DNA from: a virus
Taxonomy: Duplodnaviria; Heunggongvirae; Uroviricota; Caudoviricetes
Reading direction: 5' to 3' (one strand)
IMG/VR virus record: IMGVR_UViG_2718218126_000001
DNA length: 38,732 nt
Part shown: in pieces, positions 1-15,322 of the stretch
Layout of the letters: each line of letters begins with the position of its first letter
Position numbering within the stretch: position 1 is the stretch's first letter
Position numbers and translations under genes: made by a program
The notes under the pieces: model-generated
What the model saw: only the letters and a program-made list of their open reading frames with translations
Database searches by the model: none
What the model was told of the DNA's origin: nothing

Positions 1-798
1 TTAATGAACATTCGTCGCCGAAAACGAGTCTGTATCATTAGTGCGATGCAGTCTCTGCAAAGGATCTTGTTGATAAAATTGGCAGAAACGTTGCCACAAT
101 GAAGGGAAACGAGGAGCAAAAAGTTCTGGGGCGCTAAAGAAATATTCAGAAAGTACGGCAAAACATTCAGCAGGATCACTGGCAGCATAAGCATCAATGC
201 TCGCCGCATTCTCGCCAACCAATTCGATTTCTTCCTGAATGTTGTTCATTGCAGCATGAAGATCGTGTTCCCAGCCAGCAACCTCACGCAACGGAATAAA
301 GGGAACTCCGCTGGCGCGATCGCCGTTACGGGTGTCCAGCTTATGAGCGACTTCATGAATAATCAGGTTAAAACCAGAAGCATCAAAAGAATCTTGTATA
401 TCCAACCAGTTCAAAACGATAGGCCCTTGCTGCCAGCTCTGACCTGACTGAACAATACGTTGGTTATGCACCAGACCGATATCGTCTTCCCATTCATCAT
501 CGACCACAAATGGCGCAGGATAAATTAAGACTTCATGAAAACCATCCAGCCATTCCAGTCCTAACTCCAGAACGGGTAGGCAAAATAGAAGTGCTATCCG
601 GCAGCTTCTTAATGAATCCAGTTCAAAGCCCTGTAAAGGAACAAGCCGCTTTTGCTGTAAAAAACGTTCGGCAAGAGTGACTAATTTGCTTTGTTCCTGT
701 TCCGTCAGACACGTTAAAAGGGGGATCGATAGTGCTTCCTGCCAGGGAAGGGCAGTTTGATGTGCTGATTCTTGTACTTTCCAGGGCCACTTAATCAT
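1..798 (-). CDS. mtfA: Mlc titration factor MtfA (host gene, complete; stop codon at 1-3)
   Basis: ORF 1..837 matches MtfA/YeeI over its full length ([20 protein letters not shown]..., HEVAHKLD zinc-peptidase-like motif). Start assigned to the internal ATG at 796-798, giving 265 aa. Confidence 0.85.
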
Positions 799-891
799 CG
801 TTTTGCTCGCAAACTCGTCACTTGAACAAAATTGCACGGACAGGGACTGTTAAAATGCCAAATTTCCTGGCATCATGGCAACCATCTGAAC

Positions 892-981
892 GGAGAGATG
901 CCGGAGCGGCTGAACGGACCGGTCTCGAAAACCGGAGTAGGGGCAACTCTACCGGGGGTTCAAATCCCCCTCTCTCCGCCA
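892..981 (+). tRNA. serU: tRNA-Ser (anticodon CGA), 90 nt with long variable arm and encoded CCA
   Basis: GGAGAGATGCCGGAGCGGCTGAACGGACCGGTCTCGAAAACCGGAGTAGGGGCAACTCTACCGGGGGTTCAAATCCCCCTCTCTCCGCCA. Anticodon loop CT-CGA-AA; class II tRNA architecture. Confidence 0.9.
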
Positions 982-1066: not shown

Positions 1067-2095
1067 TCACGGGTTTCTGCTCAGAACTGTGACATCCAGC
1101 ACCGGAATATCCAGAGTCGGAGAAACTGCAGGTTTGCGATCATACGTCAGCACCTGCGCCTCAGTTTTGTGACCAGAGAACAACTGCTTTTCTTTACTGC
1201 TTCCGTCGTAGTCTGAGATCCCCTTCGCTTTTAAATCGTGAAACGTTCCCGTAATCGGGTAGCCCAGCTTTTCACTTGCCGCCGCCCTGGCTTTACGCCA
1301 GATATCGTTAAATCCGGTATAACTGTATTGCCCGCCATATTTGTTACAGACCACGAAATGTTGTCCTCCCAACGATTTCGCCTGCTCAAGTGCGAACGTC
1401 AGTCGCTCTGAATACTGTTTGATCTGCTTTTTGCCAGTCTTACCCTGTTGGATAAACAAACCCTTACTCATAACCTGATCCCACGTCAGCTTTCGTATAT
1501 CGCCGATCCGCGTGGCGCACAGATAGGCGATCTCCATCGCGCACTGTAAAACGGGAGATGCCTCCTGATAAATTGCGATATATTCCTCGTCCGTGAAATA
1601 GTAGTCGCGGGGCTTGAGGGAAAATTTACTGACGCCCTGGCATGGATTCCCTTTTACGTATCCGCGTTCGTATCCCCAGCGGAATACTCGCGACATACTG
1701 GCTTTTTCATGGTTCGCCTGTGTTTTGCTTTTCAGCCCCCGCTTGTCCATATACAGCCGCACGTGAGCAGGTTTTATGTTGTCGGCTTTCATTTTCCCGA
1801 ACGCGGCGAGTAATTTCTTCTGGTGCTGCAGATAATCCTTTTGTGTACGCTGACCGAGTTCCAGATAGTAGGTGCTGTTGAGAAATTTGTTCCAGAGTTT
1901 ACTGAACGTCATGACATCAATAGCATCATTCAGGATCTCTTCGTATTTCACCCATACCTGAGCAATTGACAGATCATTAATTTTACCCAGCGTAATACAC
2001 TCTCGGGGCGTTGGTTTGAAATAATAGCTGTATTTGTTTTTATAAACGCGGGGTGGCAGCTTATTATCTTCCGCGCTTTTTCGTGTTCTGCTCAT
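1067..2095 (-). CDS. int: Phage integrase, tyrosine recombinase family
   Basis: 342 aa with RIGD, HDLKAKG and C-terminal LTYDRK-type catalytic Tyr region. Adjacent to tRNA; ATGA overlap with upstream gene. Confidence 0.9.
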   Translation of the reverse strand: MSRTRKSAEDNKLPPRVYKNKYSYYFKPTPRECITLGKINDLSIAQVWVKYEEILNDAIDVMTFSKLWNKFLNSTYYLELGQRTQKDYLQHQKKLLAAFGKMKADNIKPAHVRLYMDKRGLKSKTQANHEKASMSRVFRWGYERGYVKGNPCQGVSKFSLKPRDYYFTDEEYIAIYQEASPVLQCAMEIAYLCATRIGDIRKLTWDQVMSKGLFIQQGKTGKKQIKQYSERLTFALEQAKSLGGQHFVVCNKYGGQYSYTGFNDIWRKARAAASEKLGYPITGTFHDLKAKGISDYDGSSKEKQLFSGHKTEAQVLTYDRKPAVSPTLDIPVLDVTVLSRNP

Positions 2096-2310
2096 CAGAT
2101 TGCATCAAAATTTGGTTGTTCTTCTTCGGCAATCTGCACGGACCTTGCTCCGGACAGCGCAGCGTTTACATGCGTCCATGTGACGCGAGGTCGCCCATCG
2201 CGGCGTTTTACATAAGAGATCCCGGCACGGGTCAGGGCGCCGCATTGTTTTGACGGGAACTGGTAGCCGGTCAGTTCAACCAGTTCCTCGTCGTTTAACA
2301 GATCGTTCAT
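2095..2310 (-). CDS. DUF4224-like small protein (excisionase-like position)
   Basis: 71 aa with LVELTGYQFPSKQ motif typical of DUF4224 proteins found beside integrases. RBS GAGGAAAG upstream; stop overlaps int start. Confidence 0.5.
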   Translation of the reverse strand: MNDLLNDEELVELTGYQFPSKQCGALTRAGISYVKRRDGRPRVTWTHVNAALSGARSVQIAEEEQPNFDAI

Positions 2311-2470
2311 GGTCTTTCCTCATTATGTAGCTTATTGCGTCATCTGCCACATGGCAGGCACGGGCAATATCAGACTCGGTCAAGGCCTGTTTCCTGACGC
2401 TGGCCGACAGTCGGCCAATTTTGATATCAAATGCGGAGAGCAGAGTTGCTCCCGGTTGCCATCGCAGCAT
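2276..2470 (-). CDS. Hypothetical small protein (64 aa from internal ATG; possible small DNA-binding or directionality factor)
   Basis: ORF 2276..2500; ATG at 2468-2470 is preceded by AGGAGG at 6-nt spacing. Function unknown. Confidence 0.35.
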   Translation of the reverse strand: MLRWQPGATLLSAFDIKIGRLSASVRKQALTESDIARACHVADDAISYIMRKDHERSVKRRGTG

Positions 2471-2519: not shown

Positions 2520-2702
2520 TTATTTCTGATTAGGCGTAATCAGTTCTGGTGGGGGGAATGCCGATTTCTCCCGCGTGACCTTAATGTTTTCTGGCAGGTG
2601 TAGCCCAAGTTCGCAGCGACTCCGTGCTTCAATAATGCCATTGGTACCATCGGCAAGTACCAGGTGAACCGCGTCACCACGCTTTAATGTGAGTTTAAGC
2701 AT
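2520..2702 (-). CDS. CsrA/RsmA-like small RNA-binding protein (putative)
   Basis: 60 aa: MLKLTLKRGD...GLHLPENIKVTREKSAF aligns by eye with CsrA MLILTRRVGE...GVNAPKEVSVHREEIY. 1-nt TAATG overlap with upstream gene. Confidence 0.4.
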   Translation of the reverse strand: MLKLTLKRGDAVHLVLADGTNGIIEARSRCELGLHLPENIKVTREKSAFPPPELITPNQK

Positions 2703-3271
2703 TAGCGTACCCTCAGCGAACGTTCGCCGCGTTCCAGATGTGCGCCTGGTACCGGGTTTAATAACTCGGCTGGTGGTGTTTCTCCACGCGCCAGTATTTC
2801 GGCGGCAACCGCCTCCGCAGATTCAATCACTTCTTTAATGGCTCGCTTGTTTGGTGTAATAACCGTTTCTACATCAACAAGTGACACGCCTTCATACTCA
2901 TCCGGGATCTTATCTTTGCTATCGATAATTACCCGGATAGCCCCCTGTGCATCAGTAAATGTGTTTTTTGCGGTTTTTAGTTTATCCAGGCCAGCAGCTT
3001 GCTGGCAGGCGAGCATATGCTTCCGAATTGCTTTTTCCTTGCCTTCAAAGGACGTCTTACGGGTAGCCAGGCGAGACATTTCTTCAGCGCAGGTACTGGC
3101 ATTGCCCTGTAAATTGCGGCAGATGACCATCATGGCGTCCAGTTTGTCTCCCAGTTCTCCTTCCATACCTTCAAGTGTGTCGGCGATCATCTCTGGCGTC
3201 AGTTCGTCGGAGGTTTCCAGCAGGTCAATCAGGCTGGCGTATTCTTTTGCAATAGCGATAGCGGTGCTCAT
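2702..3271 (-). CDS. Phage protein, Siphovirus Gp157-like (putative; recombination-module associated)
   Basis: 189 aa; N-terminal IAKEYASLIDLLETSDE...DTLEGMEGEL pattern recalled from the Gp157 family. RBS AGGAG; translationally coupled to neighbours. Confidence 0.45.
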   Translation of the reverse strand: MSTAIAIAKEYASLIDLLETSDELTPEMIADTLEGMEGELGDKLDAMMVICRNLQGNASTCAEEMSRLATRKTSFEGKEKAIRKHMLACQQAAGLDKLKTAKNTFTDAQGAIRVIIDSKDKIPDEYEGVSLVDVETVITPNKRAIKEVIESAEAVAAEILARGETPPAELLNPVPGAHLERGERSLRVR

Positions 3272-5484
3272 GCTGTTTGCTCCTGTGCGGCGGCGAGAGC
3301 GGCGAGGCGTTCGGTTTTGATGTCGCTGATACGGCGCAGACGTGATCCCAGATACGATGAATATTCTTTATCGCCTTTGGCTTCCGCTGCTTTCCTGTGT
3401 ACATCCACTTCGCGGGCGATGAGGCCAAATACCTTGTTTACTTCGTTGGCGGTTACCGCGGCGGCCAGCGTATTGGCAACGTTGATAAGCTTCTCATCCA
3501 GTTCCTTACGCAGACGGGTAGCATCTTCCGCATTTTCGCTGGCATTCTTGATATCAAACTCAGCTTTATTCCTCTGGCGGTATTCCGGATTGTCGTACAG
3601 GCCCATGAAAATATCGGCGCTGAATCCGAGAGGGGATAGCGCTTTCTTAACAGCATCCGTCCAGGATTTCTTCGGCGCTTCGCCGTCGCTTGTTGGTCCG
3701 TATTTAGTGTCGTAGATATAAGGTGTGCATCCGTAAGCCTCGGACTCACCGCGCACTCCATTCAATATGTACCAGACTCTAACTTTCATGGTGTGGTGCA
3801 TTTCACATAGGTACCCGCCAACACCGTCTTGAATCAGATCCCATTCTATTTTTTCACCAACCTGTTTTTTGCGAACTATCGGTGCGCCTTTATCAAAACG
3901 CTCTTCCACCACCTCTACACCCCAGCCAATACCAAACGGCCCAAATTCGCGAGTCGCTTTCATCGCTATATAAGTGCCGTTGATGGATGTGCCGCCGCCG
4001 TTCTGAGAGAAAGCACTGGTGAAGCGCTCATCGGTTTTGAATACGTTCTTCCACAATGCCAGGTTATCTGTGTCGTCGGAGTCCTTTAACTCCGTTTCGA
4101 TAGCTGAGATTGCATTCTGCCGCTTGTGCTCTTCGGTATGGACCCGCTCAACCAGCGCGTCAACGTTCTGCACCAGATCCTTTACCTGCTCGCTAAGTTT
4201 TTCTTGTGGAGGAGTCTCTTCTGCCAGGGTAATTGCTGCAGGTTCCCTCTGTGATACGGCGTTATTTTCAGGTACGTCATACACATGGCGAGGCGTGACA
4301 AACTGCTCACGCAACTGCTGCAAACTACGTTCTCCAGCATTTGCAGCTTCGCTTTTTTCGCCCTGATTTGAGGGTGTTTCTGACATCATCCCATCAATTG
4401 AGAATCGTCCGCCGCCGTGGTTGGTGACTTTTACATCATCCTTTGGTGCTGCTTCCTTTGGCTTCTCTTCAACAGCATTTGCATCACGCTGCCCGTTAGC
4501 TTGCAGCCAGTTGTCGATGTGACTGCGCAGGGATTGTGGGAAGTGGTACGTGTCTTTTGCGGGGGCGCTCTGAATAACACCGAATACTGATGCACGGTCA
4601 TAGGCAAGGATCTGATCCGTTGTGCGCAAGGCCATTGACCAGCGTTTAAAATCTTCCCTGTCCTGACTGATTATTTCGTCTGCCGCTTTCAGGATGCTGG
4701 GGGTGATTTTTTCCGGGCCAACGGGTAACAGGGCGCAGGCAATTTCACGATCCAGTGTGGCGTGAGTCTGTTGGTAAGGACGTGCGGATGCTGTTTCTGG
4801 TTTTACCTCCGGCAGCATTTCATCGCGTTTACCGGGATTCTCTACCCATTTTTTTATAAATTTGGAGATAGTCCAACTGGTCGGGTTTTGTTCCTGGGTA
4901 TCGCAACTTGCCAAAATTGCATGTACCAGATTATTCAATCCAGCAATATGCATGTACTCGATGGGCTTACACGCCACCATGGCATCAAGAACGATGCGGT
5001 TAAACGCGTCAACCTCATCCTCACTGTCAGTATCACTGTTGTCGAGCATCTCCAGGTATTCACGCGTCTGCGCAAGCAATTCACTGTCGACTTCGTTGGC
5101 ATCGTGGCTGAACAGCAGGACGGCGGCGAAGCGTTCACGAGCAGGCAGTTTCATCAGGTCGCTAACCTGTGAGATATCTGCTGAACTGCAACCTGAATCA
5201 ACAGGAGTGTTAACTACCCATCTCTCGCCATCAAAACTGTGTTCTGTGGCAAACGTCTCATCAAACTCACCGACGCCTGGGCGCGGTTGGCCCGGGGCAT
5301 CTTCCCAGATTTTAGGTTTGAAATAGTTGTCGCCGTGGTCAGGGTAGGCTTCCCACAATTTGCCGATGATGATGTTCTCGGCAACTTTTTTGTTAGGGGC
5401 GTCGATGGCGATGGCCAGCGCCGGGATCGCGCCGTTTTTGAGCGCACCTTTTTTCGCTTCTAACAAGCCGTTAAAAATGGTCAT
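3268..5484 (-). CDS. Large early protein with Rad52/Sak-type single-strand annealing domain and ~450-aa N-terminal extension
   Basis: 738 aa. Residues ~480-640 carry Rad52 signatures (GPFGIGWGVEV, KKSWTDAVKKALSPLGFSADIFMGLYD). RBS GAGGAAAG before the ATG at 5482-5484. Confidence 0.6.
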   Translation of the reverse strand: MTIFNGLLEAKKGALKNGAIPALAIAIDAPNKKVAENIIIGKLWEAYPDHGDNYFKPKIWEDAPGQPRPGVGEFDETFATEHSFDGERWVVNTPVDSGCSSADISQVSDLMKLPARERFAAVLLFSHDANEVDSELLAQTREYLEMLDNSDTDSEDEVDAFNRIVLDAMVACKPIEYMHIAGLNNLVHAILASCDTQEQNPTSWTISKFIKKWVENPGKRDEMLPEVKPETASARPYQQTHATLDREIACALLPVGPEKITPSILKAADEIISQDREDFKRWSMALRTTDQILAYDRASVFGVIQSAPAKDTYHFPQSLRSHIDNWLQANGQRDANAVEEKPKEAAPKDDVKVTNHGGGRFSIDGMMSETPSNQGEKSEAANAGERSLQQLREQFVTPRHVYDVPENNAVSQREPAAITLAEETPPQEKLSEQVKDLVQNVDALVERVHTEEHKRQNAISAIETELKDSDDTDNLALWKNVFKTDERFTSAFSQNGGGTSINGTYIAMKATREFGPFGIGWGVEVVEERFDKGAPIVRKKQVGEKIEWDLIQDGVGGYLCEMHHTMKVRVWYILNGVRGESEAYGCTPYIYDTKYGPTSDGEAPKKSWTDAVKKALSPLGFSADIFMGLYDNPEYRQRNKAEFDIKNASENAEDATRLRKELDEKLINVANTLAAAVTANEVNKVFGLIAREVDVHRKAAEAKGDKEYSSYLGSRLRRISDIKTERLAALAAAQEQTA

Positions 5485-5617
5485 TGGTCTTTCCTCATTA
5501 CAGGTCAGTGGTCTTTAGTAGGGGATTTCAACGGTATCTGGCGTGTATTCGATGCAAAGTAACTGAATCGCCCCGGGAATCCTGGAGACTAAACTCCTTG
5601 AGAGAGAGGTAAACAGG

Positions 5618-5944
5618 ATGACTAAAAATACGCGCTTTTCCCCTGAGGTCCGTCAGCGGGCCGTTCGTATGGTTATCGAAAGCCAGAATGACTATGACTC
5701 GCAGTGGGCGGCCATCAGCTCCATCGCCCCTAAAATCGGCTGTACGCCTGAGACCCTGCGTACCTGGCTGCGTCAGTATGAGCGCGATGCCGGTGCAGGT
5801 GACGGCGGACTGAGCACCACTGAACGTCAGCGTCTGAAGGAACTGGAGCGTGAAAACCGCGAACTGCGCCGCAGCAACGATATCCTGCGCCAGGCTTCCG
5901 CGTATTTTGCGAAGGCGGAGTTCGACCGCCTGTGGAAAAAATAG
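5618..5944 (+). CDS. IS3-family transposase OrfA (HTH)
   Basis: 108 aa [19 protein letters not shown]...[31 protein letters not shown]; leucine-zipper-like C-terminus typical of IS3 OrfA. Confidence 0.9.
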
Positions 5945-6831
5945 CGCCTCTGGTGGATACCCTGCGTGGTGCGCACGGGGTCGGACCGGTATGCCACGAG
6001 CTGGCTGTCGCCCCGTCAACGTATTACCGGCATCGTGCGCATCAACGGCATCCGGATAAACGCAGTCAGCGGGCACAGCGTGATGACCTGCTGAAGCCGG
6101 AGATACAGCGCGTGTACGATGAAAACCACAGCGTGTACGGTGTGCGCAAGGTCTGGCGCCAGTTGTTGCGTGAGGGGGTGACCGTGGCCAGGTGCACAGT
6201 AGAACGGCTGATGAAGGTGATGGGGCTTGCCGGTGTGCGCCGGGGTAAAAAGGTCCGCACCACAGTCAGCCGGAAAGAAGCCGCTGCGGGTGACCGGGTG
6301 AACCGCCAGTTCGTGGCAGAACGCCCCGACCAGCTGTGGGTGGCTGACTTCACGTATGTGAGCACCTGGCAGGGCTTCGCTTACGTGGCGTTCATCATCG
6401 ATGTGTTCGCCGGCGTCATTGTGGGCTGGCGGGTCTCATCGTCGATGAAAACGACGTTCGTGCTGGATGCACTGGAGCAGGCGCTGTGGGCCCGTCGCCC
6501 GTCGGGCACCATCCATCACTCAGATAAGGGGTCACAATATGTGTCGCTGGCATACACTCAGCGGCTTAAGGATGCAGAGTTGCTGGCGTCAACCGGCAGC
6601 ACAGGCGACTCATATGACAACGCGATGGCGGAGAGCATCAACGGACTTTATAAAGCGGAGGTGATACATCGTAAGAGCTGGAAAAACCGCGCCGAAGTGG
6701 AACTGGCCACACTGACGTGGGTGGACTGGTACAATAACCGACGGTTGCTGGAACGACTGGGTCATATCCCGCCGGCAGAAGCGGAAAAGGCATATTACGC
6801 TTCCATCGGAAATGGTGGTCTGGCAGCCTGA
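5932..6831 (+). CDS. IS3-family transposase OrfB (DDE catalytic domain), expressed as OrfAB by -1 frameshift in the A-run at 5936-5941
   Basis: 299 aa in the -1 frame relative to orfA, overlapping at TGGAAAAAATAG. Contains [18 protein letters not shown] and [15 protein letters not shown] motifs of the DDE core. Confidence 0.85.
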
Positions 6832-6873
6832 GTTCACAGATAAAACACTCTCCCGGAAAACCGGGGCGGTTCA

Positions 6874-7128
6874 AACGCGATGGCGGAGAGCATCAACGGA
6901 CTTTATAAAGCGGAGGTGATACATCGTAAGAGCTGGAAAAACCGCGCCGAAGTGGAACTGGCCACACTGACGTGGGTGGACTGGTACAATAACCGACGGT
7001 TGCTGGAACGACTGGGTCATATCCCGCCGGCAGAAGCGGAAAAGGCATATTACGCTTCCATCGGAAATGGTGGTCTGGCAGCCTGAGTTCACAGATAAAA
7101 CACTCTCCCGGAAAACCGGGGCGGTTCA
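6874..7128 (+). repeat. Tandem 255-bp duplicate of the IS right end (copy of 6619..6873), including a second right terminal repeat
   Basis: Exact repeat seen in sequence; ORF 6880..7086 duplicates the last 68 aa of OrfB. Most likely a remnant of a second IS copy after rearrangement. Confidence 0.85.
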
Positions 7129-7184: not shown

Positions 7185-7688
7185 ATGCTGGAAACAGAAC
7201 AGGCCTGGGAAGTTTTCGAAAAGCTGGAAGATTGTTATTTTAGACAGCGTCCAGAGAGGCGGAGTACAACTACCGATGACCGTACTCCCTTACGTGATGC
7301 CGTTAATATGCTGGTCGGTAAGAAAGGCATGATGTATCCCGATGCCTACACCATGATTCATCAACGCTTCGCCGTCTCTCACATAGAACAACTGTCACAG
7401 ACGCAAATGTTAGAGGCGATTGAATACATCCACTGCCTGCTACTCGATGAAAATCAGCCAACCATTCCAGATTTTTCTTTTATCACCACTATCAAAAATG
7501 GAAAAGTGACCAGGATGCGCCATGTTGCCAAAGGCGAACATCTGATGACGTTTGACGCTTTCAAAGAGATCGCTGAGCGGGCAGGGTATCTGGTGATCCA
7601 CAGCGACAACCTGCGAAGTATGACGCTGGATAAATTGATGGTAATGGGGAAAAAGTCGGTTGTATCCGTTGCTGATTCAGCATTTTGA
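7185..7688 (+). CDS. Phage regulatory / antirepressor-like protein, probably 5'-truncated by the IS-associated rearrangement
   Basis: 167 aa from ATG 7185, but the same frame is open back to the IS end at 7129 with no upstream start. Functional assignment weak. Confidence 0.35.
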   Translation: MLETEQAWEVFEKLEDCYFRQRPERRSTTTDDRTPLRDAVNMLVGKKGMMYPDAYTMIHQRFAVSHIEQLSQTQMLEAIEYIHCLLLDENQPTIPDFSFITTIKNGKVTRMRHVAKGEHLMTFDAFKEIAERAGYLVIHSDNLRSMTLDKLMVMGKKSVVSVADSAF

Positions 7689-7720
7689 CAGGTTGAATGT
7701 TTGGCGCGGTTATACTCTAT

Positions 7721-7797
7721 TTGCGCTTAAAAAGGTATTTAGTCACAACCAGCACGAGGCCGAATACTCTGTCAAAGTACCGCCCATGTAAAACTGT
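7721..7797. repeat. Direct repeat copy A (~77 bp, ~93% identical to 11322..11398); decayed copy of the 3' end of the membrane-protein gene
   Basis: ttgcgcttaaaaaggtatttagtcacaaccagcacgaggccgaatac... versus copy B; 4 mismatches and a 1-bp deletion that breaks the reading frame. Confidence 0.8.
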
Positions 7798-7865
7798 TAC
7801 GTATGTACTTGATGACTAAGCTGGCACCAGGTTAACACCAGGCGCCAGCTTGAAGGAAACTTCAG

Positions 7866-8789
7866 TTATTGGTTTCTGAGGAAAGCGATTCTTGAAAGGG
7901 TCATTTGCGTCTGGCAGTCGACCATTTTCTTGACTTCAGCATCTGTTCCCTGCATTGAAACTTTACCGCACATAGCATCCTTAGTTTTGATCCACTGACG
8001 CTGAGAAGGCAGCAACTCTTTTTTCTTCGCCGGCGTTAACCTGCCCCAGACTGTATTCAAATCAGAGTCAGCATTCGCAAATGCCATTCGGGACTGATCA
8101 AGGCTTTCAGCTTTTTGCGGCTGAAGTTGTGCCTGCCTCTCTATTTGCTTCTCCGCCTCATACCTGGCCTGTTCCTGTGCCCTGAGTTGCACCTGTTGTT
8201 CCGCTTCAATTTGACTCTGTTGGGCATCCTTAGCCTGCTGGATTTTCTGCTGCTCAACGATCGGGTTGATAATGGAAAGCGATGTCAGTAAAGCGGCGCC
8301 CACTGATATCGGATTATCAGAAGAGGTTTTTACAAAAACGTTTTTCTGATCGTCGGTCGCCTGCACGGTGTAGGTGATACGTTTTGAAAAGGCGTTTGCG
8401 TTGTTCTCCAAAAACAGATTTTCCATTTGCTTATCGAGATTACGATTAAAATTCTTTCTGTAAGCATCAGAAAGCTGGACGTACTCGTTCGCAGGTAGAG
8501 TCATCGTCACGGTCCCTTCACAAGTTTTCATTGTGCTGCCCGTGTCACTTGATGTTGTGGAGATTTCAGAGACGGCTAGTTTGATCTTGTCCAGTGTGCT
8601 TCGTTTGGTCTGATTAGTGACATCAGGGTATTTATCGACCTGTTCAGAGAGTCCTTCATAAGCAGATTTTTTTAATAAATCCATGAGAGCTGATTGGGTC
8701 ATTTCCGAAGAACAACCGATCTCATCTTTTTTGTTATCACAGCCTGTAAGGGCAATGGCGAGTAAGAGTACTGAGTATTTTAATCTCAT
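7866..8789 (-). CDS. Lipoprotein with C-terminal DUF1311 (LprI-like lysozyme-inhibitor) domain, putative
   Basis: 307 aa; signal peptide plus lipobox LAIALTGC; Gln-rich coiled-coil middle; C-terminal ...DLNTVWGRL...QRQWIKTKDAMC...MVDCQTQMTLSRIAFL resembles DUF1311. Confidence 0.55.
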   Translation of the reverse strand: MRLKYSVLLLAIALTGCDNKKDEIGCSSEMTQSALMDLLKKSAYEGLSEQVDKYPDVTNQTKRSTLDKIKLAVSEISTTSSDTGSTMKTCEGTVTMTLPANEYVQLSDAYRKNFNRNLDKQMENLFLENNANAFSKRITYTVQATDDQKNVFVKTSSDNPISVGAALLTSLSIINPIVEQQKIQQAKDAQQSQIEAEQQVQLRAQEQARYEAEKQIERQAQLQPQKAESLDQSRMAFANADSDLNTVWGRLTPAKKKELLPSQRQWIKTKDAMCGKVSMQGTDAEVKKMVDCQTQMTLSRIAFLRNQ

Positions 8790-9415
8790 GAATTCCCTTT
8801 AGAGTAAGGATTGGTTTTTAAGACGCGGTCTGTAATCAGTTCCGAGAGCTACAGTAAACAACGCTGAGCACTGAACGCATCACAGGCAAGGTAAAAGGTG
8901 ATATCGGCAAAGGCTGTGAAACCTTTAATTCAACAGATGGGAACGGTATGCACAGGATCCTGTAACGACGCTCCCAAAACCGGAAACCTGTAAGGCATGT
9001 TTTCGCTGCTGAACTTAATATACGAACCTGCACTATCATGAACATATTTTATATCGTTATACCCCGAGTGATTGTGCCCGGCAATGGATAGTGTCCTGGA
9101 GGAACTATTTCTACTGTAAAAGGTAGACATTTAATTTCAGTGTGGAATTATTCCCTGCTGTTAATAACCATGGCTCTATATGGCACCGAGCGGACTAGTT
9201 AACTTGCCTGAAAGCCGCTATGAGTGAGGAGCGAATATTGGCACGATAGGATACCTGAACCATTTTTTGGACATGCGCTAAAAGCGAATGATTAGTTTTA
9301 TCGGAATATTTACAGTATACTTACAAGGCAAGCTTGGCGTACCGTCTTGGGCGAGATTGCTTAAATTATTTTGTGGATATATCATTCAAACAAAAGATAA
9401 TAAAATGAGGTTGTT

Positions 9416-9613
9416 ATGTCATATATTCGCGTAGAGAAAGATGGCCTTCAGTATGAAGCAGAATACTTCCGTGAAGAGGATATGGTCACAGTCTTTGGGG
9501 TTAGAGGAGGGCATTCCAGCGTGGTTCTAAATGGAATGACAGAAGTCGCGGCTGCTCGTACTGCGTTACGAAATCTTATTAGAGAAAATCAGGTTGATCC
9601 TCTAACTGATTAA
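9416..9613 (+). CDS. Hypothetical small protein (65 aa)
   Basis: RBS TGAGG 8 nt upstream of the ATG; AT-rich surroundings; no recognisable motif. Confidence 0.4.
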   Translation: MSYIRVEKDGLQYEAEYFREEDMVTVFGVRGGHSSVVLNGMTEVAAARTALRNLIRENQVDPLTD

Positions 9614-9817
9614 AAATAAGCCATCTTAACTGAGAGCATATTTTGATATAATTTAGATTAAATCTATTTTGAAGGTTAGTTTGGGATGAGAAGATTACAT
9701 CAAAACCGTTATTACTAGCAATAAGTTGTGTAAATCAAATAATACATAATCAGGTGGTAATATATACTAAGCGTAGTAAAGTTTTTATATATTCCTGTAA
9801 CTTTGTGAGAAACTTCC

Positions 9818-10483
9818 ATGAAAGCCGACAACTTAAGAATTATAGAGAATGGCAAATATGTTTTCGATATGTTCTTGGATACTGGTGAATTTTACTATAC
9901 AAGTCATGCCTTTGACACGAGAGAAGATGCAAAAAGCTGGATGGAAGAATGGCAGATTTGGGCAAATAATGTATCGAGTGGGAAAGTAAGTAGTATTTAT
10001 TATATTTTACAAGTGCCTGATACTTGGGCCGGTTCTTCAGATAAAAATAACCCTTACTCGGGACTTTATGTGAAAATAGGGCGTTCCAATAATGTGCTAA
10101 AAAGGTTGTCTAACCTGCAGACAGGTGCATTTGGTCAATTAATATTACACGCTTTGGAACCAGGTGGTTCAGAAAAAGAAAACTATCTTCATGAAAAATT
10201 TAGCAACGAAAGACGTCAAGGTGAATGGTTTGTTTGTACTAAGGAACTTACCAAGCATATATTTACAACATGGTTTAAAAACAAAATGCTCCCACCAGAA
10301 CATCAAATAAAAATAATGCAGCTCGCAGAAAGAATAGGTATTTATTCGCATGTTCATACACTAATGGGGGGGAAGCCAGACTTAGTAAACCCATCTATTA
10401 GTGAACCTTGGGAATGCGAAAAATATGTTTTGGTTGATATGATTTATAGCTCTTTAGCAAAGCAAGTTAATCATAAAAAATAA
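9818..10483 (+). CDS. T5orf172 / GIY-YIG-like domain protein (putative nuclease)
   Basis: 221 aa; SSIYYILQV...GLYVKIGRSNNVLKRLSNLQTG...EKENYLHEKFSNERRQGEWF matches the GIY...YIG...R...E pattern of T5orf172/MUG113 domains. Extended -10 TGaTATAAT upstream. Confidence 0.6.
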   Translation: MKADNLRIIENGKYVFDMFLDTGEFYYTSHAFDTREDAKSWMEEWQIWANNVSSGKVSSIYYILQVPDTWAGSSDKNNPYSGLYVKIGRSNNVLKRLSNLQTGAFGQLILHALEPGGSEKENYLHEKFSNERRQGEWFVCTKELTKHIFTTWFKNKMLPPEHQIKIMQLAERIGIYSHVHTLMGGKPDLVNPSISEPWECEKYVLVDMIYSSLAKQVNHKK

Positions 10484-10803
10484 AGTGTTACATTTTAACT
10501 ATACAATTATTGATTCACTAATGAAGAGGTGATTTAGACGTATGAAGTTTTAATAAGCTCCAAGAATATTTTGTCATACATGGGTTAAAGAGTTATATAA
10601 TAATATCTGCTTCTGGAACACAGCAGACAAGCACCTGCAGATAAAGGTCTGCTGAGAGCGAGAAGCGGATCATACGTTGGAAGTTGTTTAGGCAAATACG
10701 TTATAAACGTATTTGATTAAATTTACTTGGATCATAGTCTTCAATAACGCTTTATTATATTGTTTTTCATGCAGCAAACAGGTTCACAGGTAGGTAATAA
10801 GCT

Positions 10804-11208
10804 ATGAGTGGATGGAAAGAGCCTTTTACATTAGCAGAACAGATACAATTAGCATTAAATTTAGGTTATGAGGCTGTACCAGATGAAGAGGCATATACTG
10901 GGGCATACTTCATTAAAGGTGGTAAGAAGTGGATCTTTAACATCATCGGTCTCAAAAAGACATTGAATATATCTTCAGATGATGAACTAAGAGGGCAGGA
11001 TTATGATGTTGATATGTATTTCGAAATTCGCCAAAATTGGGCACAATACCAAGATATGATCTTTGGAAGCGAAGATATCACTCCTTCACCTAAAAATGAA
11101 CTTACTTCAATTTACCATGACCTGCAGGTAACGGATGAACCCAGGGAAATGGTGTATCTTTCTGATGGGATGTGGCTGGATCCCAACGGACGAATTGTAC
11201 AACGATAG
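10804..11208 (+). CDS. Hypothetical protein (134 aa)
   Basis: Own upstream region with palindromes (aaatacgt/acgtattt at ~10694-10715); no recognisable motif. Confidence 0.45.
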   Translation: MSGWKEPFTLAEQIQLALNLGYEAVPDEEAYTGAYFIKGGKKWIFNIIGLKKTLNISSDDELRGQDYDVDMYFEIRQNWAQYQDMIFGSEDITPSPKNELTSIYHDLQVTDEPREMVYLSDGMWLDPNGRIVQR

Positions 11209-11317
11209 CACTCGAACACACTCAGTAATCGTCTATAAGGCCAGCACTTGTTACTTGGTCATTTGGGGTTGCTGGTCTTCTCCATTAAATCGACTAAAGT
11301 CTGTTCCATAGAGAGAG

Positions 11318-11923
11318 TTACTTGCGTTTAAAAAGGTATTTTGTCACGACCAGCACGAGGCCGAATACCTCTGTCAAAGTACCGCCCATGTACAACTGTA
11401 GTGTTAAATCCTCAAATTCCAGCTTACCTGCGCCGTCGGCAATAAATACACCATTCATTATCAGAAGTTGGCAAGCAAGGATAATCAGGAACCATTTCCC
11501 GTATCGTTTTTTTAGAGCGATTTCTGCTTCAAAATCTTTGTTGTTGAGTTGTTTGCGCTCATGCTCGGTATCAAGTGAATTCACCTGTTTCACAGATGTG
11601 AACTCGGTCAAGATTTTACTCTCAGTACGGGTGACTTGTTGAGAGGGTGTAACAGTTGGAATTCTTTTGCTAGACGCAGCTACAGCCATTTTGCGAGCTT
11701 CGGCAGCTCTTTTTCTGGCTATTCCGCGAATACGGACAGCCGTTTTTTTGGGGGCGTGCGAAACCTTTGGCTGAGGTGAAGTTTCGTCAGGAGACTGAAC
11801 CGGGGTTTCATCGTCCCCCGGCTCAACCTCTTCTGCTAACTGACGGTGTAGGTTGAGGGAATCCTTCAGTCGGCGTGCAACTTCCTGTTTGAAACGGCTG
11901 TTAAAATCGTCATCCGATGGCAT
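11318..11923 (-). CDS. Membrane-anchored protein: hydrophilic basic N-terminal region, two predicted C-terminal TM helices
   Basis: 201 aa; WFLIILACQLLIMNGVFIADGAG and TLTEVFGLVLVVTKYLF hydrophobic segments. Starts 9 nt after the peptidase stop; last 25 codons lie inside direct repeat copy B. Confidence 0.55.
   Translation of the reverse strand: MPSDDDFNSRFKQEVARRLKDSLNLHRQLAEEVEPGDDETPVQSPDETSPQPKVSHAPKKTAVRIRGIARKRAAEARKMAVAASSKRIPTVTPSQQVTRTESKILTEFTSVKQVNSLDTEHERKQLNNKDFEAEIALKKRYGKWFLIILACQLLIMNGVFIADGAGKLEFEDLTLQLYMGGTLTEVFGLVLVVTKYLFKRK
11322..11398. repeat. Direct repeat copy B (~77 bp), coding the 3' end of the membrane-protein gene
   Basis: Matches 7721..7797 with 4 mismatches and 1 indel. 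Confidence 0.8.
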
Positions 11924-11932
11924 TCTAAAGCG

Positions 11933-12421
11933 TTACCCCAACCTCAAGTTCTTTAAACGATAAGTCATCGCATCGTCAGATACGCCAAAATAATGCGCCA
12001 TTATATAACTTGGTTGGCCGTCAGCGTGCAGTTTTCTGACCTCATCAACCGGCATCAGAAGTTCTGCTGCGAACTTGTTCGCAAAAATTTCATCAGGATG
12101 CGTTCCGGCGCTTGCGGTTTCGCCACGTAAATCAACGTACTCATATTCATCACTATGCGATGCTTGCCGGGCGATGTAATGCCCCAACTCATGCCCACAT
12201 GAAAAACGTTGACGAACTTTGTTGTCATCACTGTTTAGAAAGATCGCTGGATCTTGATCTTTTTGTTTAATCAGTGCGCCAGAAACTTTCCCAGGAAGAT
12301 CGGTAATAAAAACATCTAATCCCATGTCGTGAGCAATTTTCGCTGGATCAACAGGGAAACCACGCCCGCACCAGAACGTGTCCAGCACTCGCCGGGCGTG
12401 CTCTCTTGGGTTGGTAGCCAT
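11933..12421 (-). CDS. ImmA/IrrE-family (DUF955, M78-like) zinc metallopeptidase
   Basis: 162 aa; HEXXH as CGHELGHY and downstream DEIFANKFAAELLMP, the family signature. RBS GGAGG. No fused HTH domain. Confidence 0.7.
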   Translation of the reverse strand: MATNPREHARRVLDTFWCGRGFPVDPAKIAHDMGLDVFITDLPGKVSGALIKQKDQDPAIFLNSDDNKVRQRFSCGHELGHYIARQASHSDEYEYVDLRGETASAGTHPDEIFANKFAAELLMPVDEVRKLHADGQPSYIMAHYFGVSDDAMTYRLKNLRLG

Positions 12422-12495
12422 AGCTCCTCCAGTTACTGCATTACGATTGTTGGTCGAAATATAGACAACATGTTCCGTACCACTTTCCTGTGAAA

Positions 12496-12510
12496 GTGCA
12501 AATTCTGCAC
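12496..12510. promoter_or_regulatory. Perfect inverted repeat GTGCA-N5-TGCAC upstream of the peptidase operon; candidate operator
   Basis: gtgcaaattctgcac seen in sequence, ~75 bp upstream of the peptidase start on the minus strand. Confidence 0.3.
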
Positions 12511-12750
12511 TTCTGGTACGATATTAACTGTTAGTAGTAAAGTCTTCCAGATAAATCACTTTAAAATCTTGTGAATTGCTTGCTTTTTACGCTGCATTGT
12601 GGATGGCTCAATGTTTCCAGTAAAAACATACATGATAATCATGACATTAGTGGTTTTTTAAGCGTCCATATGTTTCTTAAAAAAATGGATGCCACAAGAG
12701 GCCAGATGAGAACGGAAAGGGAAGGCTATTACATGTGTGATTTATTACAT

Positions 12751-12766
12751 CTGTAAAAAAATACAG
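12751..12766. promoter_or_regulatory. LexA-box-like CTGT-N8-ACAG motif (weaker match)
   Basis: ctgtaaaaaaatacag in the divergent intergenic region. Confidence 0.3.
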
Positions 12767-12855
12767 ATCTAACTTGATCTTTTCATTGAAGTTTTTCTTG
12801 GTCCTGGATAGGATCTGGAGGTTGCGAAGTTTTTAGAGTCGCATCAAAGGGAAAG

Positions 12856-12879
12856 CCCTGACAGCGCCAACTGTCAGGG
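12856..12879. other. Perfect 9-bp stem / 6-nt loop hairpin of unknown function
   Basis: ccctgacag-cgccaa-ctgtcaggg in a 540-bp non-coding region. Confidence 0.3.
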
Positions 12880-12988
12880 CCATACAAAAACATCGGTTAA
12901 TGCTTTCGTTGAGATCTCGGTTTGGGAGATTACCTCAACCGGGATCCCGTGTAAAGCATTCATTACCGAAAATGATATAGGTCAATGA

Positions 12989-13267
12989 ATGAAACACATC
13001 TGTAAAAAGTCACATCGTCACGACAGTATGTTTGATGTTCTTTCTGCAAATCAGGGTAACGTTGGGCGGCACAAGTGTTGTGGATGTGCCTATGATAAAG
13101 GTATGTGGCATGCATTAATCGGCGTTCCGCGTGCGGTTGATGACTCTGTTTTAGGTGATTTACCCGAAAGCCAGGCTGGGCATGTCCGTCATAAAGATGC
13201 TTTTGAAGCATATAATATGGGCTATGACCATGGGATGCATAAAAAAGCCTACGGTATGGCCTCATAA
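12989..13267 (+). CDS. Hypothetical Cys/His-rich small protein (92 aa)
   Basis: Followed immediately by a strong intrinsic terminator, which favours this strand over the overlapping minus-strand ORF. Function unknown. Confidence 0.4.
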   Translation: MKHICKKSHRHDSMFDVLSANQGNVGRHKCCGCAYDKGMWHALIGVPRAVDDSVLGDLPESQAGHVRHKDAFEAYNMGYDHGMHKKAYGMAS

Positions 13268-13288
13268 TCTGGTGCAAATGAATAACTA

Positions 13289-13316
13289 ACCCGCTTCGGC
13301 GGGTTTTCTTTTTTAT
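13289..13316 (+). terminator. Rho-independent terminator
   Basis: acccgc-ttcg-gcgggt stem-loop followed by tttcttttttat. Confidence 0.6.
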
Positions 13317-13385
13317 AGAACCCTGCGATGTGAAAACGAATAATAAATTTTGCAAATAATGCAGTTTTTATTATTCGAGGTAATT

Positions 13386-14027
13386 ATGAAAACCTTCTAT
13401 GAGGACTGGCCTGAAACTTTCGTTAGCCGATTAGATATGTTACGAGCTCTGGATGATCGCGGCTCGACCCGGAGGCTCTATCTTGAGCGGACCGGGGCAA
13501 TATTTGACGCTCTGGCAGAAGAGATACGTACAGCCGTTGCCGGGCATCCTGAAATCGACGTGAGTGAACTTGATATCGGGCCGCTGTATCGCTATTACAA
13601 ACGTGGAGAAAAGGGGAATCCGCTGGCTGACTTACTTATTGAGTTGGCTCCACCAACTTGTGAACGGGTTCGTATATCTCCTGAAGTGTACACAATCCCG
13701 TATCTGTTTTTTGCACTGTTGCTAGCGCAAGGCGCTGACAACGATGCCCGCGATTTTTTCAATATGATGATGCGACCGTTGATCATCGCCTACCGTTTCA
13801 AACAACTGGCGCGCTACCTTGGCACTAAGGGCGGAGGACGACCACAGCACAGATTAAAAAGCGAAGCCATTGAACTGGCTGATCGTTTTTTTACTGAAAA
13901 CCCGACAGCGCCATTATCGCGTGGTGTGCAATACATATCCGGTATTTTTGTGGCGAAATACTCTGACCCACCTGCAGCGTCGACGATTAGAAAATGGTTA
14001 ATTTCAATTTACAGGAGTGATAAATAA
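13386..14027 (+). CDS. Hypothetical protein (213 aa from ATG with GAGG RBS)
   Basis: ORF 13350..14027; preferred start MKTFYEDWPETF at 13386. No recognisable motif. Confidence 0.5.
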   Translation: MKTFYEDWPETFVSRLDMLRALDDRGSTRRLYLERTGAIFDALAEEIRTAVAGHPEIDVSELDIGPLYRYYKRGEKGNPLADLLIELAPPTCERVRISPEVYTIPYLFFALLLAQGADNDARDFFNMMMRPLIIAYRFKQLARYLGTKGGGRPQHRLKSEAIELADRFFTENPTAPLSRGVQYISGIFVAKYSDPPAASTIRKWLISIYRSDK

Positions 14028-14069
14028 TGACCATAAACGGTTTAATCTCCTATAAAACCGTTTAATAAA

Positions 14070-14089
14070 ATTCACGACGTGAATATAAT
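14070..14089 (+). promoter_or_regulatory. Palindrome ATTCAC-GAC-GTGAAT overlapping a perfect TATAAT hexamer; candidate operator/promoter
   Basis: attcacgacgtgaatataat seen in sequence. Confidence 0.3.
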
Positions 14090-14140
14090 TGTTCATTATT
14101 CCCTCATTGTATCTGGCGTTATGACAAATGCCATAAAATA

Positions 14141-14156
14141 CTGTATAAATGTACAG
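14141..14156. promoter_or_regulatory. LexA (SOS) box, strong match to CTGT-N8-ACAG consensus
   Basis: taCTGTataaatgtACAGgt, 22 nt upstream of the ATG at 14179 and overlapping a TGACAA / TATAAA promoter-like pair. Confidence 0.5.
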
Positions 14157-14178
14157 GTAATGGCGTTAGGGGGAAGAC

Positions 14179-14358
14179 ATGAATATTCAAGAATCTATAG
14201 GCGAACTACCGGAAACATGCCGGGCTGTTATCAAGCGTAAGGACGGACACATCGTTGGTGTGCGTGTTCTGACCGATGATGAACGGATTGCCAGCCTGAT
14301 GGCGTTTCTCGAGTTGGCAGAAATAGCTGGATATACTATTACACCCCCTGACGCGTAA
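14179..14358 (+). CDS. Small protein (59 aa), probably SOS-regulated; not in the supplied ORF track
   Basis: ATG with strong RBS AGGGGGAA; translation MNIQESIGELPETCRAVIKRKDGHIVGVRVLTDDERIASLMAFLELAEIAGYTITPPDA; LexA box directly upstream. Confidence 0.45.
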   Translation: MNIQESIGELPETCRAVIKRKDGHIVGVRVLTDDERIASLMAFLELAEIAGYTITPPDA

Positions 14359-14435
14359 AACACGGTATAATATCGGTGCTGGATTGAACACCCGGCACCA
14401 TTTTCTGAACACTGCCGCGCCACCTGGAGTTAAAC

Positions 14436-15032
14436 ATGGCGCAGCATTCATTTATCAGGGTATCCGGCGGTTCGCTAATACCCGCGACACCAGACACGCA
14501 ACGCTGGTTGACTGAACGAGTCAAACCAGGTGCTGTTGTGTATGCAGATTTCAAACAGGCACGTAATCCCGCGTTTCACCGTAAATTTTTCTCACTTCTC
14601 AACCTGGGCTTTGATTACTGGCATCCGTCCGGAGGGGCTATTTCTCCTGCGGAGCGAGAACTGGTCCACGGCTACGTTAAGTTACTGGCGTATTACGGTG
14701 GGCATGGTGATGTCATGGCTGAGCTGGCTGATCAGTATCTTCTCGATGAGTCGGAAAAGCGCGCGGGGAATATCAGTGCGGTGAAGTCGTTCGAGGCGTT
14801 TCGCGCCTGGGCGACTATGGAATCTGGATTTTATGACGTTCATCAGATGCCAGATGGTAGTTTGATGCGTGTACCTCGTTCAATCTCGTTTGCTGCGATG
14901 GACGATCTTGAGTTCGGTCAACTGTATTCAGCCGTTTTAGATGTGCTGTGGAATTATATTTTGTTCCGCACGTTTGCCTCTCAGGAGGCCGCTGAAAATG
15001 CTGCCGCGCAGCTGTTGGATTACACATCATGA
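14436..15032 (+). CDS. nin-region phage protein, DUF1367-like (putative)
   Basis: 198 aa; RBS GGAG; position upstream of Q. Family assignment from memory of lambdoid nin-region proteins. Confidence 0.5.
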   Translation: MAQHSFIRVSGGSLIPATPDTQRWLTERVKPGAVVYADFKQARNPAFHRKFFSLLNLGFDYWHPSGGAISPAERELVHGYVKLLAYYGGHGDVMAELADQYLLDESEKRAGNISAVKSFEAFRAWATMESGFYDVHQMPDGSLMRVPRSISFAAMDDLEFGQLYSAVLDVLWNYILFRTFASQEAAENAAAQLLDYTS

Positions 15033-15322
15033 AAAAAATCGACCTGAGAAAAGCTGCACGTGGTCGCGCTTGTACTGTGCGTATCCCCGGTGTGTGCAAT
15101 CACAATCCTGAAACCAGCGTACTGGCTCATTATCGTCTCGCCGGAACGTGCGGCACAGCCATCAAACCTCACGATATGCAGGGCGCTATCGCCTGCAGTG
15201 CGTGTCACGATGCCATCGACGGACGTACAAAAACGGATTACGAGCACGACTCATTGTTGTTGATGCACGCTGAGGGAGTTTTCAGAACACTGGCTATCTG
15301 GCGCGATGAGGAGTTTATCTGA
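15029..15322 (+). CDS. nin-region protein, DUF1364 / YbcO-like putative nuclease
   Basis: 97 aa; KAARGRACTVRIPGVCNHNPETSVLAHYR...ACSACHD Cys/His pattern recalled from the YbcO family. Overlapping stop/start with neighbours. Confidence 0.55.
   Translation: MKKIDLRKAARGRACTVRIPGVCNHNPETSVLAHYRLAGTCGTAIKPHDMQGAIACSACHDAIDGRTKTDYEHDSLLLMHAEGVFRTLAIWRDEEFI

Follow-up and report, generated by a model that had tools for sequence, protein, structure and literature searches.

CsrA is a global post-transcriptional regulator that governs carbon metabolism, motility, biofilm formation and virulence, as well as CRISPR-Cas defence in some bacteria. It is an obligate strand-swapped dimer, and its RNA-contact residues, as defined by published mutagenesis and nuclear magnetic resonance studies, are L2, L4, R6, R7, V40, V42, R44 and I47. 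Homologs of CsrA have also been catalogued from plasmids and from phages, the latter including the RsmM-type proteins of Pseudomonas phages F116, phi297 and D3-like phages, and those of Vibrio phage VvAW1, Bcep22 (gp54) and E. coli phage PTXU04 (gp28); canonical CsrA genes are present in 88 phage records. A survey by PSI-BLAST run to convergence listed CsrA homologs in 30 phages (PMC7366521), and a second one searched GenBank and IMG/VR with the Pfam CsrA hidden Markov model (HMM) at E ≤ 1e-4 combined with a phage-CsrA HMM (PMC8450108). Phage CsrA has been proposed to manipulate host functions under Csr/Rsm control, including CRISPR-Cas (PMC8450108, PMC7366521). Here we describe a small gene of a Caudoviricetes virus (IMG/VR record IMGVR_UViG_2718218126_000001; the whole stretch of 38,732 nucleotides is referred to below as the window), the product of which is likely to be a distant relative of CsrA that standard annotation does not recognize.

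The open reading frame (ORF) in question occupies positions 2520-2702 on the minus strand, starts with ATG and comprises 60 codons for a product of 60 amino acids (aa), MLKLTLKRGDAVHLVLADGTNGIIEARSRCELGLHLPENIKVTREKSAFPPPELITPNQK, which is basic (pI 9.0, as compared to 8.2 for CsrA). An earlier sequence-only reading of the window had taken it for a CsrA/RsmA-like protein translationally coupled to an upstream Gp157-like gene. Both its coordinates and its neighbor were borne out, as Pfam Sipho_Gp157 is matched at 2702-3271 (E 8e-27), and so was the coupling: the window sequence reads TAATG on the minus strand at 2704-2700, the TAA of Gp157 and the ATG of the CsrA-like gene having one base in common. 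A Shine-Dalgarno-like run, GAGGG (2710-2714, minus strand), is located 7 nt 5' of the ATG, within the Gp157 coding region. Given this stop-start coupling, the CsrA-like protein is probably translated jointly with Gp157.

The gene is a real one, and the purifying selection on it is strong. Its reading frame is intact across 81 related loci, drawn from IMG/VR prophage contigs and from the phages ZF40 and BUCT708, all 81 of which have a Gp157 homolog (50-99% identity) directly upstream, with a spacing between the Gp157 stop and the ATG of -1, +1 or +2 nt in all except one. Among 37 distinct 60-codon alleles (459 allele pairs), the mean nonsynonymous divergence (dN) is 0.086 and the mean synonymous divergence (dS) is 1.15, a ratio of ∼0.07, and the variable sites at codon positions 1, 2 and 3 number 23, 10 and 51, respectively. 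From the mere 60 codons and from the label "hypothetical" given in every source that names the protein, PGAP included, one could suspect that the spacer separating Gp157 from the excisionase gene (xis) contains this ORF by chance. This possibility, to which we assign virtually no probability, is already refuted by the conservation pattern: a dN/dS of 0.07 with variation mainly at third codon positions, an intact frame retained from 100% down to ∼37% identity across Enterobacterales prophages, a conserved coupled start and a PHROG family of its own (PHROG 2482, E 5e-35, with no assigned function).

The family forms ∼31 close clusters among 5.8 billion proteins and is carried by 167 IMG/VR stretches, and the 1-kb region around the gene is found in 457 out of 5426 complete E. 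coli genomes (∼8%). For example, the same gene in a stretch of E. coli E62 (100% identical to the window) encodes the RefSeq "hypothetical protein" WP_000916333.1. A scan of GTDB genomes returned five species representatives (of Escherichia, Citrobacter, Rosenbergiella, Enterobacter and Raoultella), all of them Enterobacterales; a sixth match, in a Rhodoferax metagenome-assembled genome (L179, 3357-3500), was discarded as an antisense chance match ("LKRGDAIH") inside the polyphosphate kinase gene ppk. The family also occurs in prophages of Salmonella, Klebsiella, Citrobacter, Enterobacter and Pectobacterium, and in two named phages, Pectobacterium phage ZF40 (gp05, 43% identity to the window protein) and "Stenotrophomonas" phage BUCT708 (67%). 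Overall, the family does not extend beyond the ZF40-like temperate phages and prophages of Enterobacterales. As to BUCT708 (OM816834.1, "Stenotrophomonas phage vB_SmeS_BUCT708"), its 67%-identical copy is surrounded by a complete module of the enterobacterial type (in the order YdfE-like, Gp157, small gene, DUF4224 xis and integrase), which is unexpected for a Stenotrophomonas host, so that host assignment or isolate purity may merit a check.

The proposed relation to CsrA was assessed at several levels of sensitivity. The only Pfam match of the window protein is CsrA (PF02599; 13 bits, E 0.1), with residues 1-45 aligned to model positions 1-45, and CsrA was likewise the only or the top Pfam match of 10 out of 20 diverse family members (best E 9e-4), the other 10 having no match. 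A search of the family HMM against 1.84 billion representative proteins returned 17 matches, namely small family-like proteins or fragments and several long proteins in which many short, repeated stretches were matched. None of the 17 has a Pfam-annotated CsrA domain, and HMMER alone therefore cannot bridge the gap between the family and CsrA.

A clear signal was obtained by profile-profile comparison with hhalign. As a search with E. coli CsrA for a diverse alignment gave only sequences at least 88% identical, and the CsrA loci of IMG/VR were mostly at least 67% identical, divergent phage and metagenomic CsrA-like genes were collected by a relaxed tblastn search with E. coli CsrA, and six of them were extracted. 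The five that were scanned against Pfam were all above the CsrA threshold (32-61 bits). The family HMM gave positive scores for all 83 canonical and all 6 divergent CsrA sequences, the best of which was an ORF of MT837633 (Pfam CsrA 57.9 bits; per-sequence P 1e-5), a member of a subfamily of 81-95 aa proteins that, where named, are called "carbon storage regulator" (Lachnospiraceae/Eubacterium genomes). Comparison of the family with this Lachnospiraceae subfamily by hhalign gave a probability of 94-95% (P 4e-8 to 1e-7, score 42), with columns 1-46 aligned to 1-46, and comparison with the combined diverse CsrA alignment gave 94% (P 1.5e-7). With the proteobacterial-type CsrA only, the values were 6-7% and P 5e-3 to 7e-3, and one of 200 column shuffles reached the score; in other words, hhalign stalled at P ∼5e-3 as long as the CsrA alignments were narrow, and the signal became clear only after the divergent Pfam-positive CsrA sequences had been added.

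This result withstood stricter variants of the comparison. Removal of the Met1 column left 82-88% (P 3e-6 to 1e-5), and 74-79% (P ∼2e-5) was still obtained when the alignment was restricted to the seven divergent members without MLKLTLK. Three control families (xis, the 64-aa ORF described below and Gp157) did not exceed 1.4% with the same CsrA alignments (P ≥ 0.036). The observed scores were reached in 0 of 200 column shuffles (maxima of the null distributions, 20.6 and 24.7), and shuffling with Met1 held fixed gave a maximum of 21.2 vs the observed 42. Taken separately, residues 1-9, 10-60 and 28-48 all give a score, and their order is the same in both proteins. The likeness to CsrA noticed by eye in the sequence-only reading is thus above chance, as judged from the sole Pfam match, the hhalign P values (5e-3 to 1e-7) and the shuffles. 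Taken jointly for ancestry and fold, these comparisons make a common origin with CsrA likely.

The positions that align with CsrA include several of those implicated in RNA contact. In every hhalign alignment, P37 of the family is paired with P37 of CsrA, and R44 (part of V40-x-V42-x-R44-E45) with R44, which upholds the arginine that had been equated with CsrA R44 by eye; the N-terminal M1-L2-x-L4 is common to both, and L2, L4, P37, V40, V42 and R44 of CsrA all have counterparts in the family. Among 41 unique family proteins, L2 is present in 40, P37 in all 41 and R44 in 39; position 40 is V or I in 39/41, position 42 is V, I, L or F in 41/41, position 4 is L, M or I in 38/41 and position 7 is K or R in 35/41. 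In the family, the CsrA helix after R44 gives way to a tail of the form (L)I-x-x-N-Q-K, the conservation of which (L54 in 38/41, I55 in 41/41, N58 and Q59 in 40/41 each) equals that of the core.

The AlphaFold2 (AF2) monomer model of the window protein has strands at residues 2-6, 11-15, 21-25 and 30-34 and none in the beta5 region (40-44); residues 46-60 contain prolines and form merely a three-residue helical turn, with a predicted local distance difference test (pLDDT) of 54-66. A control AF2 monomer of a bona fide Lachnospiraceae CsrA had a lower pLDDT (67.8) and strands at 2-6, 11-13, 19-26, 29-35 and 43-45, the first four of which nearly coincide with those of the window protein. The monomer models of the window protein had no match in the PDB or BFVD, a poor test of a dimeric fold since CsrA dimerizes obligatorily by strand swapping. 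By the criterion set in the sequence-only reading, a missing profile match together with an unrelated predicted fold, the CsrA idea is not refuted.

The explanation that we favor, with somewhat more confidence than doubt as to the whole of it, is that the ORF product is a highly diverged member of the CsrA/RsmA superfamily belonging to ZF40-like temperate phages and prophages. In intact relatives its gene is located at the far end of a leftward early block that starts beside a cI-type repressor gene, as the last of a trio formed with a YdfE-like gene and Gp157, and it would be co-transcribed with the upstream genes. The protein would adopt the CsrA-type intertwined beta-sandwich homodimer, in which two basic sites would be made up of beta1 (M-L-K-L-T-L-K) from one subunit and beta5 (V-K-V-T-R44-E) from the other. 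These sites would recognize GGA-type motifs in single-stranded RNA, at ribosome-binding sites or close to them, and thereby alter how phage and/or host mRNAs are translated in the course of infection or induction. The (L)I-x-x-N-Q-K tail, which takes the place of the helix, would probably confer a partner or a specificity of its own. As to function, we hold a role as an RNA-binding translational regulator to be plausible, with the balance tipped slightly to the negative side.

Several observations weigh against this explanation. The Pfam score of 13 bits falls short of the gathering threshold of 27 bits, so that the profile match to PF02599, which the sequence-only reading had proposed to look for, is present but subthreshold. 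The Pfam matches among family members are not independent of one another, some span residues 1-14 only, and the seven most divergent members, including ZF40 gp05, have no Pfam CsrA match. The CsrA-type PHROG families (phrog_9500, 5527, 31572 and 8397), which are matched by canonical CsrA sequences used as a control, are matched by none of the 20 members; all 20 match phrog_2482 and otherwise only weak unrelated families. Searches of the PDB by sequence, with either the single sequence or the family profile, found no CsrA chain and only designed TIM barrels (E ∼0.5). Within the hhalign comparison, much of the score is supplied by the N-terminal nine residues, the best-scoring subfamily was picked after screening six divergent CsrA sequences, and the best alignment contains two compensating 6-residue gaps in the middle of the protein, which place family G9-D10 on CsrA G15-D16. 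Because of these gaps the alignment register between residues 10 and 30 is uncertain. Of the residues implicated in RNA contact, Arg6 of CsrA is Leu in 36/41 family proteins, and I47 has no equivalent, the I47/Y48 helix being missing in all family members. In the operon transcript, ANGGA motifs are not enriched (25 observed vs 27 expected from base composition). Finally, the gene is constantly linked to recombination genes and not to any regulatory gene, and this invariable linkage suggests a role possibly different from host reprogramming, which could be one in which RNA has no part. Overall, of the CsrA-like identity claimed by the sequence-only reading, the remote homology holds up (∼94% by hhalign), and a Pfam score above threshold, a match to a CsrA PHROG family and the post-R44 helix are missing.

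A likeness to AbrB/SpoVT-like proteins noticed by eye in the pattern "L-x-L-x-x-G-D-x-V-x-L-x-x-x-D-G" was dropped, as it had no Pfam support at E ≤ 10. An SH3-like small beta-barrel (Pfam SH3_2) was matched by only 4/20 members (best E 0.04), with no SH3 or Sm structure among the fold-search matches. NCBIfam has no match for the small protein, and Rfam detects no Csr/Rsm-type small RNA in the window. Weak matches to phrog_31631 (function unassigned) were seen for 6/20 members (best E 0.012); this family might be a further distant relative.

The main competing explanation, which we consider unlikely, is that the protein, whether or not descended from CsrA, is a beta-rich accessory of the recombination module with no part in RNA regulation. 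Its binding partner would be Gp157, the YdfE-like protein, a host nuclease or single-stranded DNA, and the (L)I-x-x-NQK tail would be its contact motif; small accessory recombination proteins are known from temperate phages, as exemplified by Arf, Abc1 and Abc2 of P22. The position of Gp157 directly upstream in 81/81 loci, with a spacing of -1 to +2 nt in 80 of them, speaks for such a role, as do the unenriched ANGGA motifs and the tail residues I55, N58 and Q59, which are conserved like the core and have no CsrA counterpart. Moreover, the trio is retained in the most divergent members despite differing excisionases, integrases and attachment sites. On the other hand, synteny within one phage lineage is weak evidence of physical interaction, and the only detectable relationship of the protein is to an RNA-binding family, with the RNA-contact positions L2, L4, V40, V42 and R44 conserved. 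Nuclease or RecT genes also neighbor canonical, Pfam-positive CsrA genes, as seen in VvAW1 and phi297, so that the position is compatible with a true CsrA. In a variant that combines both views, a CsrA-fold protein would have been recruited as a third subunit or regulator of the module of YdfE-like protein and Gp157. It could bind single-stranded nucleic acid at recombination intermediates, govern the translation of the early-left operon, or act as a poison subunit that heterodimerizes with host CsrA via the strand-swapped interface and uses the (L)I-x-x-NQK tail. This variant is quite unlikely; if true, it would amount to a function not described for any CsrA relative.

Quite unlikely as well is a convergent or chance likeness to CsrA, with the gene encoding an unrelated small beta protein with some other host-directed activity; it would be one of the numerous dispensable accessory genes that lambdoid phages carry between xis and the recombination genes. 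The subthreshold Pfam score, the loss of any match in divergent members, the fact that PHROGs did not merge the family with the CsrA families and the missing structural match of the AF2 monomer would all be expected from such a protein. Short alternating beta-strand patterns can inflate profile scores, and 4/20 members indeed weakly match SH3_2; the gene also occupies the position of the lambda exo-xis region, where small genes affect lysogenization and prophage induction (PMC3824215, PMC8614690). What argues otherwise is the hhalign result itself (94-95%, and 74-88% in the stricter variants), which no shuffle out of 200 reproduced and three control families (at most 1.4%) did not approach. 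In addition, three segments match in order, P37 and R44 bear identical numbers, and the length and the strand positions agree with CsrA.

The CsrA-like gene lies in the genomic context of a recombination module. Immediately upstream, the Sipho_Gp157 gene (2702-3271, minus strand) matches PHROG 253, "Mu Gam-like end protection" (E 9e-45), and is preceded by the first member of the trio, a gene for a 738-aa protein of the YdfE_N/YdfE_C type (3268-5484, minus strand), which matches PHROG 2489, "exonuclease", and includes a short RecE-like segment. Homologs of the latter in related loci carry PF27430/PF27432 (YdfE_N, YdfE_C) and a weak Exonuc_VIII match; the 738-aa protein itself has no match in the Pfam release used, YdfE_N and YdfE_C being newer families. 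Its likeness to RecE is limited to residues 232-336. The part of RecE matched by this segment is non-catalytic, and the real activity of the 738-aa protein may be that of an exonuclease, an annealase or both. In intact relatives the gene order is a cI-type repressor, 1-3 small genes, YdfE-like, Gp157, the CsrA-like gene, in some cases another small gene, excisionase, integrase and attachment site. Within this order, the excisionase may be of the DUF4224, Exc or HTH_17 type, and integrase and integration site vary as well, but the trio of YdfE-like gene, Gp157 and small gene is constant, and even the most divergent family members keep the adjacency to Gp157.

Downstream of the CsrA-like gene in the window, a 49-nt spacer, in which a hairpin with a 5-bp stem (ATCGC-N7-GCGAT, 2494-2510) can be drawn, is followed by a 64-aa ORF (2276-2470, minus strand) that matches PHROG 27062 (function unassigned; E 7e-34 over residues 11-74 of the listed ORF) and is unannotated in the 100%-identical stretch of E. 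coli E62. Next come a DUF4224 excisionase-type gene, xis (2095-2310, minus strand; Pfam and PHROG), and a tyrosine integrase gene (1067-2095, minus strand; Pfam). A tRNA-Ser(CGA) gene (892-981, plus strand), which is the probable attachment site, adjoins mtfA (1-837, minus strand). The translation-initiation regions of xis and of the YdfE-like gene (2310-2325 and 5485-5501, minus strand) share 16 identical nucleotides, TAATGAGGAAAGACC(A)ATG, and differ by one inserted A; by a rough estimate, the chance of a 16-mer being repeated within 4.5 kb is ∼2e-3, and a translational regulator might recognize both copies.

The placement of the gene in an early left operon, as put forward in the sequence-only reading, fits the intact relatives and needs to be qualified for this prophage, in which the block is split from the rest by an IS3-family insertion sequence (IS; plus strand, approximately 5561-7128, ∼1.57 kb) located directly upstream of the YdfE-like gene. 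The element comprises orfA (5618-5944), orfB (5932-6831) and an ALIL frameshift pseudoknot (5899-6015), and its 3' part is present as an exact 255-bp tandem duplication (6619-6873 and 6874-7128), which could be real or an assembly artefact. The corresponding site of intact relatives is occupied by a gene for 106 aa, with cI and cro after it, and E. coli E62 retains the uninterrupted arrangement. No promoter- or terminator-like sites above chance were found on the coding strand of the gene block, which fits (albeit does not prove) read-through transcription from the repressor side. Since the IS separates the block from the region that holds the repressor and the presumed early promoter in intact relatives, the block may be poorly expressed in this prophage. 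The genes beyond the IS (7185-15993) differ from those of intact ZF40-like relatives, and it may be that two prophage lineages meet at the IS, making the window a mosaic. Among the genes beyond the IS are those for a lipoprotein of 307 aa that contains an LprI (lysozyme-inhibitor) domain (7866-8789, minus strand), a T5orf172/MUG113 protein (9818-10483), a peptidase of the M78/IrrE type (11933-12421, minus strand), next to which lies a 201-aa ORF, a DUF1367 protein (14436-15032) and a Q antiterminator (15322-15993).

If the protein does bind RNA, as the CsrA explanation proposes, mobile CsrA-like regulators would be more numerous in enteric bacteria than thought, and ZF40, as a laboratory-grown phage, would be a convenient system for testing how a phage benefits from one. 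If it does not, the strict coupling to a recombination module of the Gp157/YdfE type would suggest that the CsrA fold has been put to a new use.

In comparison with canonical CsrA/RsmA/RsmE (PF02599; PDB 1Y00, 1VPZ, 2BTI, 2JPP), the family shares the length of ∼60 aa, the M-L-x-L-T start, Pro37, four predicted strands at the positions of beta1-beta4, a beta5-like V-x-V-x-R44-E segment and a basic character. It differs in overall sequence (∼24% identity to proteobacterial CsrA in the hhalign alignment), in the replacement of Arg6 by Leu, in the G-x-x-G-N-Q turn, which is not conserved in the family, and in the C-terminus, where the E-E-I-Y-x-x-I helix of CsrA gives way to the Pro-containing tail ending in (L)I-x-x-N-Q-K. 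The closest profile match of the family is CsrA of the Lachnospiraceae type (e.g. P0219, "carbon storage regulator [Eubacterium sp.]"). The N-termini of the two are near-identical (MLKLTLKPG[DE] in the Lachnospiraceae proteins vs MLKLTLKRGD in the family), and both have Leu6, Pro37, Arg44 and no helix directly after R44. On the other hand, the Lachnospiraceae proteins, mostly from metagenome assemblies, are longer (81-95 aa), with a distal C-terminal helix at 64-83 and an invariant F-S-G-G-S-A-N-N-I-H motif that is missing from the phage family, and the alignment requires a 6-residue deletion and a 6-residue insertion in the middle.

A likeness to the small genes of the lambda exo-xis region (orf60a, orf63, orf61, ea22 and ea8.5) is positional only: they too map between recombination genes and xis-int in the leftward early region, but the window protein has no Pfam or PHROG match to them. 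These lambda genes are dispensable in the laboratory and influence lysogenization and induction (PMC3824215, PMC6213356, PMC8614690).

The known phage CsrA homologs named above all pass the Pfam threshold (32-61 bits) and are annotated as CsrA, whereas the window family fails it and stands apart by its own tail motif and its fixed link to Gp157. The canonical post-R44 helix motif is also lacking in the Pfam-positive Bcep22 gp54 and PTXU04 gp28. The CsrA genes of F116 and phi297 are located in the repressor-side gene block, that of VvAW1 overlaps the 3' end of a DEDD exonuclease gene (L003, 2403-3213), and in phi297 a PD-(D/E)XK nuclease gene and a RecT-like gene follow ∼1.2 kb downstream of the CsrA gene (L005, 3001-6153); a link between CsrA and recombination modules may thus be recurrent in phages. 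With an E value of 0.1 vs the cutoff of E ≤ 1e-4, the window family would fail the HMM-based survey (PMC8450108); the name ZF40 is absent from the main text of the PSI-BLAST survey (PMC7366521), and gp05 is unmentioned in the ZF40 genome paper. Surveys at Pfam-level or PSI-BLAST cutoffs would have missed the family, despite its presence in ∼8% of complete E. coli genomes. Since phage-encoded CsrA homologs are already known, the family is a divergent, unrecognized branch of a known kind of phage gene and not a new kind of system. Whichever explanation holds, the practical gain is modest: "CsrA-like, divergent" is a better-founded annotation for PHROG 2482 and WP_000916333.1.

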